Assembly: GCA_964615905.1 (NCBI GenBank)
Contig: CAZTUB010000005.1
Span: 56,123-120,122, forward strand
Length of the DNA: 64,000 bases
Direction: 5' to 3'
Source of the DNA: an uncultured Clostridia bacterium
GTDB taxonomy: Bacteria; Acidobacteriota; Blastocatellia; UBA7656
Below are positions 33,058-42,548 of this stretch, in pieces. Position 1 is the first letter of the stretch. Each line of letters begins with the position of its first letter. The notes beneath the pieces are model-generated. The model worked only from the letters and a program-made list of their open reading frames with translations, had not been told where the DNA came from and made no database searches. Position numbers and translations under genes: made by a program.

Positions 33058-34665
33058 TCAGTTCTTCTTCTTAGCTTCCTTCTTGATAGCGTCGCCGACA
33101 GCATCCTTGATCTTACCGAAGAGGCCTTTCTTCTTCTCCTTCTTCTCTTCTTTCTTCTCTTCTTTCTCAGGCTCTTTGGCTACGACTTTTGGCTCTTCTC
33201 TTGGTTGAGGCTTAGGCGGCGGCGCGGTGACAACGGGTTGTGGTTGAGCGGTAGCCGCTGGCGCGCTGCTCTCCGCAACCTTTTCCGCGCGACCGCCCCG
33301 TGTGCGGCTGGTCTTGCTTGCCTCGGTTGGGGAGGTGTCGGCGGGTGTCGAGCCCGTGTCGAGTTTTGGCGGATTTGTCGGGTCGGTGACCGCCTGCGCC
33401 GGAGCTTGCGACTGCGCGGGCGCAGGGGCGGGCGCGCTTGCCGAGGGCGGCGTAAGGTTTTGAGGCTGCGCGGGCTGACTGCCGCCTCCCATAAAGGCGA
33501 GCGGCACTCCGAGCAGTGCGAGGATTGCCACGCCCGCTCCCGCGTAATGTTTCCAATTCAGCTTGCTCAGAAGAGAAGCCTGCGCGGCCTGACCGGCAAT
33601 GTCATGCGAGGGGGTCCTTATGGTCGGCACGTTTGAAAAATCCATGTAAGGCGCTTGCGCGCCAGTGCCCGCGCCGAGGCGTGTCTCCTTGGGCTGAGCA
33701 TCATTAAAGTGAGCGGGAGCGGACGGCTGGTAATTGCCCCCCGCGCCCGGAGCGAGCCGCGTCTCCTTCAAGCCGCCGGCCGCTGGCGGCTCTCCGAGTC
33801 GTGTCGCGGGCGCTACGTAACCGGGGTGCGCTCGTTCCGCGGGGGTCGCGCCCGCGTTTAGCGCGCCGAGCAGCACCGCGCGAAACTCGCCCGCGCTCTG
33901 AAAGCGTGCGGTCGGTCGTTTTGCTAGCGACCGCATAATGGCTTCTTCGATGACCGGAGGGATCGACGCAGTAAATCTTGTCGGCGGCGGCGGCGCATCC
34001 TCGATCTGTGATTTCATCAGATCGAATTCGCTCGGACTGCTAAACGGCACGCGACCGGTGAGCATCTCGTAGAGCAATATGCCTAGCGAATAGATGTCGG
34101 AACTCGCGCCTGTCTCTTCGCCGCGAACCTGCTCAGGAGACATGTACTCGATGGTGCCGACGATGTTGCCCTGCCGCGTCATTCGCGCGGTCCCAAGCAC
34201 GCGGGCGATTCCAAAGTCCATCACCTTGATGGTCCCTGTCTCGGTCAGCATCATGTTGGCGGGCTTTACGTCCCGGTGAATTATGCCGAGCTTGTGCGCG
34301 TGGTCGATACCTTCGAGCGCCTGGCAGAAGAGCGTGACCGCGCGCTCCCACCCAATCGCGCCGTTTCTTCTTATCACGTCGTCGAGCGTCTGGCCGCGCA
34401 CGAATTCGAGCACCATGAAGAAGTCTTCGCCCTGGCGGAAGAAGCTGTGAAGCGTTGCGATATTGGGATGGTTGAGCTTGGCCAAGGTGACGGCCTCGGA
34501 GCGGAAGCGCTCGACGACCTGGGGCTGGCTGGCAAGCTCAGGCCGCAGCATCTTTATCGCCACCTCGCGTTCGAGCATGAGGTCTACGCCTTTGAATACG
34601 GCCCCCATCCCGCCTTCGCCTATCTTCTCCGTGATCTTATAACTTCCTACTACATTGCCGATCAT
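33058..34665 (-). CDS. Ser/Thr protein kinase with single TM and low-complexity P/A/Q-rich plus K/E-rich C-terminal tail
   Basis: Hanks kinase subdomains (GEGGMGAVFKG, AIKML, HRDVKPAN, DFGIA, SPEQ). TM segment AGAGVAILALLGVPLAF. C-terminal EKEEKKEEKKEKKKGLFGKIKDAVGDAIKKEAKKKN. Confidence 0.9.
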   Translation of the reverse strand: MIGNVVGSYKITEKIGEGGMGAVFKGVDLMLEREVAIKMLRPELASQPQVVERFRSEAVTLAKLNHPNIATLHSFFRQGEDFFMVLEFVRGQTLDDVIRRNGAIGWERAVTLFCQALEGIDHAHKLGIIHRDVKPANMMLTETGTIKVMDFGIARVLGTARMTRQGNIVGTIEYMSPEQVRGEETGASSDIYSLGILLYEMLTGRVPFSSPSEFDLMKSQIEDAPPPPTRFTASIPPVIEEAIMRSLAKRPTARFQSAGEFRAVLLGALNAGATPAERAHPGYVAPATRLGEPPAAGGLKETRLAPGAGGNYQPSAPAHFNDAQPKETRLGAGTGAQAPYMDFSNVPTIRTPSHDIAGQAAQASLLSKLNWKHYAGAGVAILALLGVPLAFMGGGSQPAQPQNLTPPSASAPAPAPAQSQAPAQAVTDPTNPPKLDTGSTPADTSPTEASKTSRTRGGRAEKVAESSAPAATAQPQPVVTAPPPKPQPREEPKVVAKEPEKEEKKEEKKEKKKGLFGKIKDAVGDAIKKEAKKKN

Positions 34666-34701
34666 ATTTTATCCTCCTACTCGCGCGCGGCGATTTATAC
34701 C

Positions 34702-35838
34702 CTAGTTGTAACTCTGGATCAAACTGATTATTAGGTTCGATTCCGCCTTCTTGCGTGTCGCGGGCGCGAAGTTATAAGTCTTTGACTTGTCCTTCGCCTT
34801 CTGTTGCTCCGGTTCTCTAAAGACCTTCAGATGAAAAGCGCCAAGCTCTGAGCCGACAAACCCGTTCAGCTTCGCCTCTTTTATCTTCGTATCTTCCGCT
34901 TCAAAAGTATGGTTGCCGTCTTTTGCCTTGAATGTCACGGCAGCCTTTGTGACAAAGAGCGAGCCCTCGCAGTAAGTCTTAAAGAAGCCGTCGTGATCGT
35001 GATAAACATAAAAGACCGCGGACCCGCCGCGATCAAGCGCGGCGCGCATGGACTGTTCGGCCGAAAAGATATCTTGATTGCCGTACAACTGCGCAAACCC
35101 CATCAATTGATACGCAGTCGGTCTTGCCGAGTCCATCCTGACCGCTTCTTGAAGCAGACGAATGGCGCGATGAGAGTCGCTTGCCTGCATCGCGGCGACC
35201 GACTGGTCTGTCAGATCATCATAATCGGGAGTGTTGGCCGAGGCAACTCTCGACGCAGAGCTTGACGGTGCGGTCGTAGCTTTTTCCGAGATCGCGCCGA
35301 GGAGCGAGCGGTTGCCGCCAGCGGCGGTGATCTCGCGTGCGATCTCAGGCGTCATAGAAAAACTGACGCCTCGCACTTCGACAAACTGCTCGACGCGCGC
35401 GACGGGGACGCCGCTTTGCAAGAGCGTGATGACCTCGTTCTTTCCGAGCGGCGGCCCGGCGGGCACTGCCGCCGAATTCCGCCCCGCGCTGTTCGAGCTG
35501 GCCGGGCGCGACGAGGTTGAAACCGGCGTCGCCGGGCGGTAATTGGCATGGATGGCAGCTATAAGCTCCGGCCGCGCGCCTGCTTGCTGGAACTCGGATT
35601 CGATTGAAGGGGTCATTTGAAAATCGACCCCGCGCTGCTCGATGGCCTGGACGACCTCCTGCGTGGACAGAGCGTTCAGGCGCACAACTTTCAAAAGCCG
35701 CTCCTTGTCATAAGGATTTTTCCGCGCCTGCATCTCGGCTGTTGCGAAACCGAATGAAGCGACTAATATCGCGGTCGCAAGGAATGTGACCGCGCGGGCG
35801 AGCCGGGCTTTTTTGTGGTCTTCAAACTCTCTTTTCAT
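34702..35838 (-). CDS. Hypothetical membrane-anchored (periplasm-facing) protein with two tandem ~55-aa repeats and a C-terminal unknown domain
   Basis: RBS GGAGA. N-terminal anchor AVTFLATAILVASFGFATA. Repeats LNALSTQEVVQAIEQRGVDFQMTPSIESEFQQAGARPELIAAI and LLQSGVPVARVEQFVEVRGVSFSMTPEIAREITAAGGNRSLLGAI. Located between two kinase genes on the same strand. Confidence 0.55.
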   Translation of the reverse strand: MKREFEDHKKARLARAVTFLATAILVASFGFATAEMQARKNPYDKERLLKVVRLNALSTQEVVQAIEQRGVDFQMTPSIESEFQQAGARPELIAAIHANYRPATPVSTSSRPASSNSAGRNSAAVPAGPPLGKNEVITLLQSGVPVARVEQFVEVRGVSFSMTPEIAREITAAGGNRSLLGAISEKATTAPSSSASRVASANTPDYDDLTDQSVAAMQASDSHRAIRLLQEAVRMDSARPTAYQLMGFAQLYGNQDIFSAEQSMRAALDRGGSAVFYVYHDHDGFFKTYCEGSLFVTKAAVTFKAKDGNHTFEAEDTKIKEAKLNGFVGSELGAFHLKVFREPEQQKAKDKSKTYNFAPATRKKAESNLIISLIQSYN

Positions 35839-35866
35839 GAACGAATCTCCTGCCCCTGCTGACGAA

Positions 35867-37300
35867 TTACTGATCGAGCAGCCTCCTTGCCTCTTCGCGT
35901 TTTCGCGCTCGCTCGCGCGCCGCAGTGTCTGTTTCCTTGCGCGTAACCTTAGGCTGCTGCTTTGGCTGGTTTACGGCCTCGCGCGGACGGGCGATGTTGT
36001 CGGAAGGTACGTTGACCGCCTCGGCCGGTTGCACCTTGGTCTGGCCCGGAAGCGGCTCGGCCACGGGCGCGGGTGGGGCGGGCGTATCCGCCTGTTTTTG
36101 CGCGGGCGCTGCGGCAGCCGGTTGTATAATTGTGGCTGGCGCATCGACGGCTTCGCCTTTCTTTCCCCCCACAAGCGCGAACCCAAGCCCGATGACCGCG
36201 ACCAGAACGACCGCCGCCGCCGCATAATGCATCCAGTTGAGCTTTGATAAAGGCGAGCCTTGCGCGGACGGCTGAGCGTTGCCGTATTGAGCCGCGTTGT
36301 AATAAGCCGGGGCTGGCTGAGCGCCCGCAACGGAGCCGAGCCGCGTGGCAGGCGCTTCGTCCTGAGCGTTTGCGGCTCCGAGCCTCGTCTCTTTTAGCGC
36401 CGCAGGGTTTGTTGAAACGCCTTGGCCGAGCCTTGTCGGCGGAACGGCCGGGCGTCTCTCTTCAAACTGTTTGTCGACGGGGCTCGTGGCAAGGCTTTTT
36501 TGAAGCGCATCGCGAAACTCGCTCGCGGTCTGAAACCGCGCGGCAGGGTTCTTTGCGAGCGCGCGCATTATAGCGTCTTCGACCGCTTCGGGTATCTGCG
36601 GCGCGAACGATCTTGGCGGCGGCGGCGCTTCTTGAATCTGCGCCATCATCAAGCCGAACTCCGTGTCGCTCGCAAACGGCACGCGGCCCGTCACCATCTC
36701 GTAAAGCAGAATACCGGCCGAGTATATGTCTGACCTCGCATCGGACTCGTTCCCTTGGATCGCCTCGGGAGACATGTACTCGATGGTGCCGACGATATTG
36801 CCCTGCCGCGTCATCCGCGCGGAGCCGAGCATACGCGCGATGCCGAAATCCATCACCTTGATCGAGCCGTCCTCGCGCATCAACATTATGTTGGCGGGCT
36901 TGATGTCGCGATGGACGATGCCGAGCTTGTGGGCGCGGCCTATGCCTTCGAGCGCCTGGCAGAAGAGCGAGATCGCGTGGCCGCATTCCATAGCGCCGGT
37001 TCTGCGGACGAGGCTGTCGAGCGTCTCGCCCTCGACATACTCCATCACCATAAAGAAGTCTTCGCCCTGTCTTATAAAGCTGTAGAGAGTGGCGATGTTA
37101 GGGTGGTTGAGCTTGGCCAAGGTGACGGCCTCGGAGCGGAAGCGCTCGACGACCTGGGGCTGGCTGGCAAGCTCAGGCCGCAGCATCTTTATCGCCACCT
37201 CGCGTTCGAGCATGAGGTCTACGCCTTTGAATACGGCCCCCATCCCGCCTTCGCCTATCTTCTCCGTGATCTTATAACTTCCTACTACATTGCCGATCAT
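35867..37300 (-). CDS. Ser/Thr protein kinase with single TM and P/A/Q-rich extracytoplasmic tail
   Basis: Hanks kinase motifs. First 65 codons are nucleotide-identical to the kinase at 33058..34665. Its start overlaps the PP2C gene stop (ATGA overlap at 37297-37300). Confidence 0.9.
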   Translation of the reverse strand: MIGNVVGSYKITEKIGEGGMGAVFKGVDLMLEREVAIKMLRPELASQPQVVERFRSEAVTLAKLNHPNIATLYSFIRQGEDFFMVMEYVEGETLDSLVRRTGAMECGHAISLFCQALEGIGRAHKLGIVHRDIKPANIMLMREDGSIKVMDFGIARMLGSARMTRQGNIVGTIEYMSPEAIQGNESDARSDIYSAGILLYEMVTGRVPFASDTEFGLMMAQIQEAPPPPRSFAPQIPEAVEDAIMRALAKNPAARFQTASEFRDALQKSLATSPVDKQFEERRPAVPPTRLGQGVSTNPAALKETRLGAANAQDEAPATRLGSVAGAQPAPAYYNAAQYGNAQPSAQGSPLSKLNWMHYAAAAVVLVAVIGLGFALVGGKKGEAVDAPATIIQPAAAAPAQKQADTPAPPAPVAEPLPGQTKVQPAEAVNVPSDNIARPREAVNQPKQQPKVTRKETDTAARERARKREEARRLLDQ

Positions 37301-38166
37301 CTTAACCCCTCCACTTCACGGGTTTCAGGAACAGGTCGCTCATTTTCGGGCGCGAGGCTCAGGATGCCGACCGTTATGTTGTCGTGGCCGCCTCGCTCTT
37401 TCGCCACATTGACCAGATGCTCGCACGCCCGCTGCGGGTGATAATTCAAGACCGCATCTTTTAGCTCCGCGTCTTCTACGAGGTCGTACAACCCGTCGGA
37501 GCAGAGCAGAAAGCGGTCGCCCGTTTTGACAGGGAAGGGCTCTTCCCACGTAGCCACGTCGATGTCGGACTGCGTGCCCATGGCGCGCAGTATCACATTT
37601 TTGTCCGGGTGATACCGCGCCTGCTCCTGGGTGATCCAGCCGCGCTTGACCATCTCCATAACCGCCGAGTGGTCTTCGGTCATCACGTAAATCTCGCCCT
37701 CGCGCACGAGGTATATGCGGCTGTCGCCGACGTGCGCGGCTATCGCGGAGTTGTTGAGCAGCACGAGCGCCGTGCAGGTCGTCCCCATCCCGCTCAACTC
37801 CTCGTTGTCCTGAGAAGCGTTGTGAATAGCCTTGTTCGCTTCTCGAAATGCCCGCTTCAAAGCCTGTGTGGGGTCGTTGCCGTCCGAATAATAGATGTCG
37901 CTTACAATATCGACCGCCGTCGAGCTTGCCACCTCTCCAGCGGTGTGGCCGCCCATGCCGTCGGCCACGATAAAGAGCACCCCCTTGGTTGCGAGCGTAT
38001 GCGGGTCGTTGGGGTAGACGTATTTGCCTGAGTCTTCGTTTACCTCGCGCACGCAACCGACATCCGTCTTGAGACCCGAAATAATATCATATTCGGGCAA
38101 CAGGCTGCCGGTGGCTGCGTGCTGCCCGTCGTTGCCTGTCTTGTGTCTTTTCAGTAGGTTGAACAT
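37297..38166 (-). CDS. PP2C-family Ser/Thr protein phosphatase (Stp1/PrpC-like)
   Basis: PP2C motifs DGMGGHTAGEVAS, VGDSRIYL, DGLYD, GGHDNITV. Confidence 0.9.
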   Translation of the reverse strand: MFNLLKRHKTGNDGQHAATGSLLPEYDIISGLKTDVGCVREVNEDSGKYVYPNDPHTLATKGVLFIVADGMGGHTAGEVASSTAVDIVSDIYYSDGNDPTQALKRAFREANKAIHNASQDNEELSGMGTTCTALVLLNNSAIAAHVGDSRIYLVREGEIYVMTEDHSAVMEMVKRGWITQEQARYHPDKNVILRAMGTQSDIDVATWEEPFPVKTGDRFLLCSDGLYDLVEDAELKDAVLNYHPQRACEHLVNVAKERGGHDNITVGILSLAPENERPVPETREVEGLR

Positions 38167-38253
38167 AAAATGATGGCTCTCTCTGAGGCTCTCCCCGGTT
38201 TAGTATAAATAGAGAATGAACATACCATGTGCTCGTCAAAAACTGTGCAGCCG

Positions 38254-39534
38254 TTACTTGCTGCCGGTCGTTTTATCAAGGTTGAAGGTATAGACTTTAC
38301 GGTTGTCTGTGACTGAAAAATCTACCTTCTTATCGACGAACCCCTCGCTTTTGAGCGTGAAGTTGATCTGCTCTCCTTGCGCAGCCTCAAACTTGTAGGG
38401 CGTGCTGCCGACCTTCTGGCCGTTGCGATAAACTTCTGCGCGCCCTTCGGCCACGTCTATCGTAAGCGATTTTATCTGCGCGCCCGGCTGGGCTTTATTC
38501 GAAGACCGGTTCTGAGGCGCAATCTGCTGCGTGGCCGGGACGGTCTGCTCGCCGTCTCCGCCCGCGCCGGTTATAAAGTAAAGGCCGCCCGCTACGGCCA
38601 GGACGAGCGCCGCCGCGCCGCCCGCCATCAGCGCTCGCGGGTTGTTGAGAGGCCCCGGCAATGACGGCCCCTTTGCCGCGAGTCCCGACGGGCCGCCGGG
38701 TTGAGGCGCTGCCATCCCTGCCCGCCCGACATCTCTCAACAGGTCGACTGCCGACTGGTATCTTTCCGAGGCGTTCTTTCTCAGGCACCGCGAGATTATA
38801 TTCTCGATCTCGCGCGGCGTCGAAGGGATGATCGCCGAAGCGCGCACGAAATCCACTCGCGTGACCTTCTCGTAAAGCTCGCCTATCGTGTTCGCTTCGA
38901 AAGGCAGGTAGCCCGTCACCATCTCGTAAAGCAGCACGCCCAGCGCCCAGATGTCCGAGCGCGCGTCGGCGTACCCGCCTTTGAGCTGTTCCGGCGACAG
39001 GTATTGGAGCGTGCCGATAAAGCCTCCGGCCTGCGTAAGCGCGGGCGACGATCCAGACTTGGCAATGCCGAAGTCGAGCATCTTTACCTGGCCCGCCGTG
39101 CTGATCTTTACGTTGCTCGATTTTATGTCCCTGTGAACAATGCCCTGGCTGTGTGTGTAATTTATGGCGTCGACTATAGAATGATAGATAGAAAGCGAGG
39201 TCGATAGCGGCATGACGCCTCGCCCTCTGATAAGCTCGTCGAGTGTCTGCCCCTCGACGTATTCCATGATTATGCAGGGGTGTCCCTGGAATTCCAGAAA
39301 GTCGTAGAGCGTGGCTATGTTGGGGTGCTGAAGGCTTGCCTGAATCCGCGCTTCGTTATAGAACCGCTCGATAAATTCGGGAGTGCGGACGCTCTGGCTC
39401 AGGACTTTGACTGCGACTATGCGCCCGATCTTCAAGTGTACGGCGCGATAAACCTCGCCCATGCCGCCCGCGCCCAACTGGTCTACGAGCCGGTACTCGC
39501 CGATGACCGAATTTATAAGTGAAGCTCCGTTCAT
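38254..39534 (-). CDS. Ser/Thr protein kinase with TM and C-terminal PEGA-like extracytoplasmic domain
   Basis: Kinase motifs (GAGGMGEVYRAV, HRDIKSSN, DFGIA). TM segment LMAGGAALVLAVAGGLYFI. C-terminal RAEVYRNGQKVGSTPYKFE resembles a PEGA domain. ATG at 39534; the track uses a TTG at 39543. Confidence 0.85.
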   Translation of the reverse strand: MNGASLINSVIGEYRLVDQLGAGGMGEVYRAVHLKIGRIVAVKVLSQSVRTPEFIERFYNEARIQASLQHPNIATLYDFLEFQGHPCIIMEYVEGQTLDELIRGRGVMPLSTSLSIYHSIVDAINYTHSQGIVHRDIKSSNVKISTAGQVKMLDFGIAKSGSSPALTQAGGFIGTLQYLSPEQLKGGYADARSDIWALGVLLYEMVTGYLPFEANTIGELYEKVTRVDFVRASAIIPSTPREIENIISRCLRKNASERYQSAVDLLRDVGRAGMAAPQPGGPSGLAAKGPSLPGPLNNPRALMAGGAAALVLAVAGGLYFITGAGGDGEQTVPATQQIAPQNRSSNKAQPGAQIKSLTIDVAEGRAEVYRNGQKVGSTPYKFEAAQGEQINFTLKSEGFVDKKVDFSVTDNRKVYTFNLDKTTGSK

Positions 39535-39544
39535 ATGAACCAAA

Positions 39545-39582
39545 GGCGGGATGTCTAACTTCGCGACATCCCGCCTCGTTTT
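39545..39582. terminator. Intergenic hairpin (11-bp perfect stem GGCGGGATGTC/GACATCCCGCC) between the FHA-protease and kinase genes; possible attenuator/terminator
   Basis: Stem 39545-39555 / 39565-39575 followed by TCGTTTT on the plus strand. The genes are on the minus strand, where the flanking tract is weaker. Confidence 0.35.
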
Positions 39583-39599
39583 CGATGTTCAGCGCAAAG

Positions 39600-41307
39600 T
39601 TACCTGGATGAGCTGACGCTCATAAGCTCTTTGCCGTAGCGTATGGGTACCGCGAAAGTTATCATCGCATCCGAGCGGCTGCTGGCAAAGAATATGCCCG
39701 TCACGCGCCCGCGATCATCAAAGACAGGCCCGCCCGAATTGCCCGACCCCGTCGAGTTGATCGTCAACTGGTACGCGTCGCCAAAGGCGCTGTAGGCCGA
39801 ATCTTTGCCCGCGCTCTCCGAACTGCGAATGATGCGCCCGATATTGCCGACGCTCACGGTCGGGTCGGGCACGATCTTGACCTTCGATTCGCGGTTAAAG
39901 ACATCCTGCGATTTGGTGACGCCGTACACGGGAGGGCTGACCGCAGGATAACCCAGCACGATTGCCGCGTCGCCCGGCTTGATCGCGTCGTAGTTGTCAT
40001 AAAGCTCAACCTTTGATACCGCTTCAGGAACGTCCACCTTCATCATCGCTACGTCGTGGCGGTCGCTCACGCGAGCCAGCTTGGCAGGGATGCGCAGGTC
40101 GTTTTTGGCAAAGGTTACGTTGAGATAATCGTTGCGGCCTTCAAACCCGCCCTGTAGCTTCTGGCCCGCTTGCTTGGTCTCGGAAGGGACCCAGTCTTGC
40201 GGCGAGCGGATGAGAATGGGGTTGCCCTCATTGTCCAAAGCGATCTGACCGCCCTGCACGACGATTCCGGGCGTGGCGTCCTGCGGGAACTGGTAGCTCG
40301 TGCGCCAGGTGGCGGCGACGTGACGGTTTGTGAGGATAAAGCCGTCGCTTGTGACGGTAAAGCCGGAGCCCGTGTGCTCGCCGCCTATGGGTCGCCCGCC
40401 ACGGCTATCCGTAGTCAGGTAAGGCTCGATAGTGTCTTGCGACACCATGACGTAAGCGGCCACGGATTGCCGCCCGTCCGGTACGATCTGCCGACCCTTG
40501 AAGTTATTCGGTATATACATCTGATAGACCTGGCCGCCCGTCGGGGTGTAGATAAGCTTCCAGCCGCACTCGATGTAGACAGCCGAGTTCGTATAGTTTT
40601 TTACGATGTCTGCGGGCGACATAGGCCCGGCTGCTGCCAGCGCCTCAAGCCTCCCTGATGTCTCGCTTGCCAGCTGCTTGCTCGAAGAATATTGCATGTA
40701 CCACAGGACCGCGCCGACCGCCGCGATCACGACCAGCAGCGCGCCCGCGCCGATAATCATGAAATTGCGCGAATCGCTCTTGCTCTGCGTTATCATGCGC
40801 TCGACGGTCGCTTTGCCCGGCCCCTGCTGATAATGCTGCTGCGGGTAGCCCTGCGACGAGCCGTAGCCTTGCGGCACAGCGGTTTGAGGCACTGTCCCGC
40901 CAACGCGAGTCGCGGGCGGGCCGCCCGCCGTCGGGTTGTCGCCCACGCGCGTAGGTTTCACGGCGTTTGCCGGTCGCGGTTCGAGATCGAACTGGAACTC
41001 AGGACCGCCCGCGCCGAACTGCACCATGTCGCCCGGCCCGACCTGTACGGTGCCCACAATCCGCTGCTTGTTGACGAACGTGCCGTTGCGGCTGTTGAGG
41101 TCTGTCACGTTAAACCGCGTCGGGTCGGCCGGGTCCTGCGATATTCGCGCGTGTTGACGCCCGACCAGATCGTCTCTTTCTGGATCGTATTTGACGGTCG
41201 CGGACGTATCCCGCCCGATAATGAGTTCTTTAAAATGTGTGAGCGGAAACTCTTCGACCTGTCCGGCCTTCGACCCGCTAATATGCCTGAGAACTATACG
41301 CTCCATG
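39600..41307 (-). CDS. FHA domain / TM / trypsin-like (S1) serine protease fusion protein
   Basis: N-terminal FHA (LIIGRDTSATVKYDPERDDLVGRQHARI....TDLNSRNGTFVN). TM segment FMIIGAGALLVVIAAVGAVLWYM. C-terminal chymotrypsin-fold motifs GSGFTVTSDGFILTNRHV and GNSGGPVFD. Start at ATG 41307 preceded by GGAGG. Confidence 0.8.
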
Positions 41308-41618
41308 GTAGCCTCCATTTGAGCCCGTTGTTATTCGGGTGATTCTTGGACGAAAGCAAAGGGTAATGCGTGCCTCTCGCGACTAAATCAAAGTTTAAGT
41401 TCAGCCACATACTATCAAGATTCTGACCGCTACTTACCGCACCCTTTCGTTCGTGTTTAGTTGTTCTGGGTTTGTCGCACAGGTAATCTTTAGTCCCTTG
41501 CGGGGGTTCGTGAAAATTACCTCACAAAACGGCGTGATTTTATGCCTGTTCCTTTTCTATGGCAAGGCCAAAATGGCACTGAATGAAACATAAAAGATAA
41601 CGCCGCCGGGTTATCGAG

Positions 41619-42548
41619 TTAAGCGCGCGTGCTGGCATCCCTCGGCGGAGGCTGAACCGGTTGCGCGTTTTCATCATCGTGTGTCATAAGCCCTGTCGTC
41701 CCTTCGGTCACGGACGGCGGCTGCGGCAGGGGAACTTCTCTCGCAAAAGGATCGGTTCGCGCACTGAAAGCTTCGGGAACGGGCGGCAAGACCTGCTGTC
41801 GAGCCCCGGCAATCTGAGGCTGCGCGTTTGTCTCTTTAGTATTGATGGCCCGCTTCAAACGGCCCAGGCCGAAAAATGTCCCCGCGAGCCCAAGCGCGGC
41901 AAAGACGCCGAACAGTATCATCAGCACTGTGAAAACTTTTATCCCTTCGTCCCCTTTTAATCCGAAGACCAGGAACGCAAAAAATGCGAAAAGAAAGGCG
42001 ATGCCGGAAAAGATCGCGCTCATCAAAAAGTTTGACTGTCCCGCTCGCGTCTCTGCCGCTATGCGCAACACTTCAAGCTCGGCGATGTCCGCAGAGATTG
42101 GCGCGCCGCACCGGCGGCAGAATTTGGAATCGTCCGTCGTGCCGACGCCGCAGCCAGAGCAGACCGTAGGCGTCGCGCGCGAGGTCGCGAGCGCGGCAAT
42201 AGCCTTGGCCTCGCGCGACAGGATGCGCTTGTCGCCCTTCGTAAGCATCGGGTGCTTTACGACGTAATCGAAGGTGGCTCGCGTGGCGAACGCGCTGTCG
42301 GCTTTGAGCCGGACAGTGAGCGTCGCCGGGTAATCCATCACGTCGGAAGATGCCATGGCCTCGGCCCATCCTCGCGCCCCGCGCCGCCCAAGCACAACGG
42401 GCTCCTCCGCGATGATCGTGTAGCCGCACCTCTCCATCGCCGCTGAAATACTCGCTCGCACGGTTTCGATATTACCGGCGACGATGTGCGTGACATAGTG
42501 CCCGCTCGCGCCGCTGCTTTCCATTCCGAGCAGGTATTCTGTTGACAT
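41619..42548 (-). CDS. Hypothetical protein with zinc-ribbon (CxxC...CxxC) followed by two TM helices and a Pro-rich tail
   Basis: CSGCGVGTTDDSKFCRRCGAP zinc ribbon. Hydrophobic segments FLMSAIFSGIAFLFAFFAFLVF and VFTVLMILFGVFAALGLAGTFF. 300 bp upstream of the FHA-protease gene. Confidence 0.5.
   Translation of the reverse strand: MSTEYLLGMESSGASGHYVTHIVAGNIETVRASISAAMERCGYTIIAEEPVVLGRRGARGWAEAMASSDVMDYPATLTVRLKADSAFATRATFDYVVKHPMLTKGDKRILSREAKAIAALATSRATPTVCSGCGVGTTDDSKFCRRCGAPISADIAELEVLRIAAETRAGQSNFLMSAIFSGIAFLFAFFAFLVFGLKGDEGIKVFTVLMILFGVFAALGLAGTFFGLGRLKRAINTKETNAQPQIAGARQQVLPPVPEAFSARTDPFAREVPLPQPPSVTEGTTGLMTHDDENAQPVQPPPRDASTRA

Follow-up and report, generated by a model that had tools for sequence, protein, structure and literature searches.

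A conserved gene module linking an FHA-fused, HtrA-like protease to Ser/Thr kinases and a PP2C phosphatase suggests phosphorylation control of periplasmic proteolysis

A run of co-directional genes in a 64,000-nucleotide stretch of Blastocatellia DNA (contig CAZTUB010000005.1; hereafter the window) raises the question of whether Ser/Thr phosphorylation in the cytoplasm may be coupled to a protease on the other side of the membrane. The original prediction was that these genes form a dedicated transmembrane signalling and proteolysis module. The ORF check placed seven co-directional minus-strand ORFs at 33058-42548, as predicted, and plus-strand genes flank the cluster on both sides. The features of the locus, in the direction of transcription, are:

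41619..42548, minus strand: zinc-ribbon-like protein with two TM segments (sub-threshold Zn_Ribbon_1)
41537..41565, minus strand: sigma-70-like promoter match (consensus match only)
39600..41318, minus strand: FHA-TM-protease (FHA-protease), 572-aa ORF (Pfam FHA and Trypsin_2)
39545..39575, minus strand: hairpin after the FHA-protease stop codon and ahead of the STK1 start (folding energy; recurrence at related loci)
38254..39543, minus strand: STK1, Hanks-type Ser/Thr kinase with one TM segment and a PEGA-like periplasmic domain (Pfam Pkinase, PEGA)
37297..38166, minus strand: PP2C Ser/Thr phosphatase, cytoplasmic (Pfam PP2C; NF033484)
35867..37300, minus strand: STK2, membrane kinase with one TM segment (Pfam Pkinase)
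34702..35838, minus strand: UNK378, periplasmic protein of 378 aa, signal- or anchor-bearing (no family match; AF2 model)
33058..34665, minus strand: STK3, paralogue of STK2 with one TM segment (Pfam Pkinase)

The domains claimed for the seven genes were borne out by Pfam and NCBIfam, PEGA and the zinc ribbon being sub-threshold, and the ATGA coupling of PP2C and STK2 was present as a stop/start overlap at 37297-37300. STK1 scored 199 bits for Pkinase and 20.6 bits for PEGA, just under the Pfam cut-off of 20.8; PEGA was detected at E<0.01 in the C-termini of 7 of 10 STK1 orthologues, two of these 7 passing the cut-off. The phosphatase scored 256 bits with the Stp1/IreP model NF033484 (NCBIfam cut-off 230) and retained the full set of metal-binding motifs, and catalytic motifs were kept in STK1, STK2, STK3 and PP2C. 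The likely starts, as in public assemblies, are M5 of the FHA-protease (41306), giving 568 aa, and M4 of STK1 (ATG at 39534), giving 426 aa.

The FHA-protease scored 54.1 bits for FHA (cut-off 20.7) and 57.8 bits for Trypsin_2 (cut-off 27.6) in Pfam. Its FHA domain (about aa 5-112, nt 40983-41306) is followed by a disordered linker (aa 113-186, nt 40761-40982), a single TM segment (aa 187-207, nt 40698-40760; hydrophobic stretch at aa 187-205) and an HtrA-like S1 protease domain (aa about 230-572, nt 39603-40631). The only sensible topology places the FHA domain in the cytoplasm and the protease in the periplasm. A frameshift artefact of the assembly was rejected as the origin of the fusion, since full-length homologues were found across hundreds of protein clusters. 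Trypsin-type domain(s) occurred in all of 120 listed clusters and FHA also in 119 of them; at 50% identity and E<1e-30 there were 455 clusters. Two-FHA variants occur in the family.

The triad H333/D422/S528 was invariant within the clade and nearly so among distant members in the alignment. The FHA-protease has a chymotrypsin fold and GNSGGP serine motif in common with the HtrA family (S1C: DegS, DegP, AlgW and M. tuberculosis HtrA/PepD), which provided its best matches by sequence and structure alike. The closest solved folds for the protease part were HtrA1, DegP, DegS and AlgW (sequence/structure search, Foldseek), and the FHA part was structurally closest to the FHA domain of M. tuberculosis Rv0020c (3po8, TM 0.87; Foldseek). 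As in DegS, an N-terminal membrane anchor is joined to a periplasmic catalytic domain. Unlike the HtrA family, the FHA-protease lacks a PDZ domain in the Pfam search, stays far short of the NCBIfam family cut-offs (48.5 bits, where 416 is required) and carries large insertions in its protease domain; the C-terminal protease barrel was of low confidence in the AF2 model (pLDDT<50 at residues 456-522). Whereas the regulatory domain of HtrA proteases is a periplasmic PDZ, that of the FHA-protease is a cytoplasmic FHA, so the controlling input would come from inside the cell.

The predicted dedicated neighbourhood was conserved in related genomes. The FHA-protease gene was followed by PP2C and a kinase in 53/53 informative Blastocatellia-type loci and in 35/35 informative distant metagenome loci; synteny was thus kept, with PP2C present, in 88/88 informative loci, which places the clustering beyond chance. 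In 51 of the 53 Blastocatellia-type loci STK1 directly follows the FHA-protease, and Runella rosea CP030850 and an Accumulibacter MAG share the same four-gene order. Named relatives belong to Bacteroidota, Balneolota, Abditibacteriota and Proteobacteria. Across 219 species-level genomes the locus is vertically inherited and its gene order stable. UNK378 was present in 48/53 Blastocatellia-type loci compared with 1/35 distant loci; the same operon position is filled by lineage-specific periplasmic partner genes, in Bacteroidota by a gene for a small outer-membrane beta-barrel protein. The conserved core comprises the FHA-protease, PP2C and a single membrane kinase, which a second kinase usually joins; the third kinase and UNK378 are Blastocatellia-specific additions. 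This core is smaller than the seven genes of the original prediction.

The zinc-ribbon gene was the member that had to be removed. No homologue was found beside the module in 80 related genomes/loci by ORF search, even at E<=10, and the gene adjoins the module only in near-identical contigs. Its product has a CxxC...CxxC motif and scored 20.9 bits for Zn_Ribbon_1, under the Pfam cut-off of 25. A 300-bp gap parts the gene from the FHA-protease, and inside it lies the promoter-like site (TTGCCA-17-TAAAAT, 10/12 match to the sigma-70 consensus). This site is consistent with the FHA-protease module having its own promoter. The zinc-ribbon gene is a neighbour outside the conserved module. The hairpin downstream of the FHA-protease has an 11-bp perfect stem followed by TTTGGTT (dG -27.6 kcal/mol, z -4.4). 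Of 66 related loci, 79% have a strong hairpin here, compared with 11-36% at other junctions between different genes, and it is possibly a partial terminator or mRNA-stability element setting the protease:kinase ratio.

A shared short motif connects the kinases with the protease. The juxtamembrane linker of STK2 (aa 266-358, nt 36227-36505) contains PPTRLG, KETRLG and PATRLG, and that of STK3 (nt 33544-33870), a kinase 64% identical to STK2 and with its first 197 nt identical, contains PATRLG, KETRLA and KETRLG; both activation loops read M-T-R-Q. The linker of the FHA-protease holds invariant T123-R124 (nt 40947-40952) and T137-R138. In 79 kinase juxtamembrane linkers TR[LIVMF][GA] was observed 139 times where 1.7 were expected, and in 78 FHA-protease linkers 61 times where 2.2 were expected; the shuffle test overstates independence because the counts were taken over related sequences. 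Periplasmic tails gave no enrichment (1 observed, 1.2 expected). The shorter TR[LIVMF] occurred 80 times against 10.8 expected in distant FHA-protease linkers, and T123 was invariant among members only 34-60% identical. The motif sites in STK2/3-type kinases and in the FHA-protease linker are probably phospho-acceptor and FHA-docking sites. Counting against this, their pT+3 residue is Gly or Ala, neither of which is known to be classically favoured by FHA domains. The proposed role resembles that of mycobacterial PknB, whose phosphorylated juxtamembrane region docks the FHA domain of FhaA, as discussed in PMC12077195.

The reading that we tentatively prefer, at slightly less than even confidence, is a Ser/Thr-phosphorylation module that spans the membrane and has as its output, or as a close partner, an HtrA-like protease tethered to the membrane and acting in the periplasm. 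The receptor-type kinases would autophosphorylate the motif Thr within their own juxtamembrane linkers and phosphorylate the equivalent Thr123/Thr137 of the protease linker. The FHA domain would bind these phospho-threonines, either on the kinase in trans or on another protease protomer in a head-to-tail arrangement, and docking would bring kinase and protease into complexes or protease subunits into oligomers. Members of the HtrA family act as trimers or bigger assemblies; here, assembly would activate or position the protease for cleavage of a nearby envelope target, and PP2C would reset the system by removing the phospho-marks. The most plausible candidate targets are the kinases' own periplasmic tails, which are long and disordered and end in conserved peptides, followed by UNK378 or whatever it presents, and thirdly by the Bacteroidota beta-barrel protein.

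No folded sensor domain was found in STK2 or STK3, only disordered periplasmic tails ending in conserved peptides (...EARRLLDQ in STK2; a basic, G-rich amphipathic peptide, KKGLFGKIKDA..., in STK3). UNK378 had no Pfam or NCBIfam match and 654 homologues, and among the 120 best listed nearly all that bear a name are labelled 'hypothetical protein' and one 'tetratricopeptide repeat protein'. It has a hydrophobic N-terminal segment and no lipobox, and part of its sequence is repeated internally (34% identity, E 9e-10). In its AF2 model (pLDDT 81), two helical repeats of ~55 aa and a pair of TPR-like hairpins are joined by a PH/PTB-like domain at the C-terminus; Foldseek matches were to Sin1 PH, talin F3 and Numb PTB. 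On this model UNK378 is a periplasmic adaptor-like protein and a candidate adaptor, co-receptor or substrate. In NlpI-Prc and LbcA-CtpA, a periplasmic TPR protein encoded or acting with a periplasmic serine protease delivers specific substrates. The modelled UNK378 has comparable TPR-like hairpins plus a peptide-binding-type PH/PTB fold, but NlpI and LbcA are lipoproteins, and Prc and CtpA carry PDZ domains and belong to the S41 C-terminal processing peptidases, neither of which applies here.

The same observations could be ordered from the outside in, which we consider somewhat unlikely. The protease would then lie upstream and process some target in the periplasm, be it UNK378, the tail of a kinase or a protein of the envelope, making or removing the kinase signal, and the FHA domain would only tether it near active phosphorylated kinases or feed back, like mycobacterial FhaA/FipA. 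Kinases without a folded sensor would need such a partner or processing event for sensing, the peptide-binding-type folds of UNK378 would suit this role, and the synteny fits equally. However, the invariant Thr-Arg motif in the cytoplasmic linker suggests that the protease is a phosphorylation target, and the distant-clade kinases have sensor-like ectodomains of their own, with Sel1/TPR-like repeats visible in sequence, yet the FHA-protease is retained there.

The mycobacterial fhaA-fhaB(fipA)-pstP-rodA-pbpA-pknA-pknB operon likewise brings together FHA protein(s), a single PP2C and a pair of membrane Hanks kinases. Its FhaB/FipA (NF049868, partial match) is an FHA protein anchored in the membrane as well. 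By analogy with the cell-wall operon fhaA-fhaB-pstP-pknA-pknB, the FHA-protease might be a general envelope quality-control enzyme, one of many kinase substrates, localised by its FHA domain (e.g. to growth/division sites), with no specific switch or dedicated substrate. HtrA proteases are typically quality-control enzymes, and the best NCBIfam matches were to FhaB/FipA, Stp1 and PknB-type models. This is nevertheless distinctly unlikely, as rodA, pbpA and PASTA sensor domains are all absent (ORFs, Pfam), PDZ, the substrate-capture domain of classical quality-control HtrAs, is missing, and the 88/88 linkage across phyla with lineage-specific periplasmic partners argues for a dedicated system. 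The module also differs from the mycobacterial operon in its phyla (Acidobacteriota, Bacteroidota and others) and in the fusion of FHA across the membrane to a protease that is catalytically intact by its residues.

In the Blastocatellia clade, Gly53 (V-G-R-Q-H) stands where the FHA S-x-x-H motif canonically has Ser. This Gly is invariant or nearly so and aligns with GarA Ser95; distant members retain the Ser. Mutating this Ser usually weakens phosphopeptide binding, and its replacement counts against phospho-dependent control in this clade. It is very unlikely, though, that the domain has lost phospho-threonine reading and become a phospho-independent interaction domain, tied by ancestry only to kinases and a phosphatase that regulate something else: the remaining signature residues (G35-R36, R54, H56, S76, N78-G79) are invariant, and the TR motifs and synteny are fully retained in the clade, which points to continued selection on the same interaction. 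A mobile conflict or anti-phage system built on a kinase, an FHA domain and a trypsin-like effector is extremely improbable, for although kinase, FHA and trypsin domains are found among conflict-system effectors (PMC7159879, PMC8195603) and PADLOC matched the kinases to generic PD-T4-6 models, its matches went no further than generic kinase and trypsin domains, the system-specific component and an NTPase or STAND partner were absent, the plasmid search gave no match, every protein is envelope-anchored and inheritance is vertical with stable gene order.

The preferred reading, phosphorylation acting through the FHA-protease, has partial parallels. In the M. tuberculosis ABC transporter Rv1747, FHA-pThr interactions control assembly/activity, under regulation by PknF. 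Its FHA domains (discussed in PMC5549992) are cytoplasmic and lie beside a disordered linker with Thr phospho-acceptor sites, as in the FHA-protease, but the output is a transporter of an unrelated family with a separately encoded kinase. In type VI secretion, PpkA/PppA/Fha-TssL, a Hanks kinase, PP2C and FHA protein post-translationally control an envelope-spanning machine (PMC3953482); the set is common to both, but there the FHA protein is soluble, the output is secretion and no protease is involved. A survey of serine proteases in prokaryotes from 2008 (PMC2605481) lists the same domain combination, FHA-FHA-Trypsin, for Bacteroides thetaiotaomicron NP_811686.1; it catalogues the architecture and does not analyse its neighbourhood, topology, motifs or function. 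No precedent for an FHA-coupled periplasmic protease was described in the literature searched, in agreement with the unusualness originally expected of it.

The module is real and widespread across several bacterial phyla, with an uncharacterised function. It represents a form of FHA/STK/PP2C signalling not described before in the literature searched, and the mechanism that we infer for it from sequence suggests that cytoplasmic phosphorylation controls periplasmic proteolysis.

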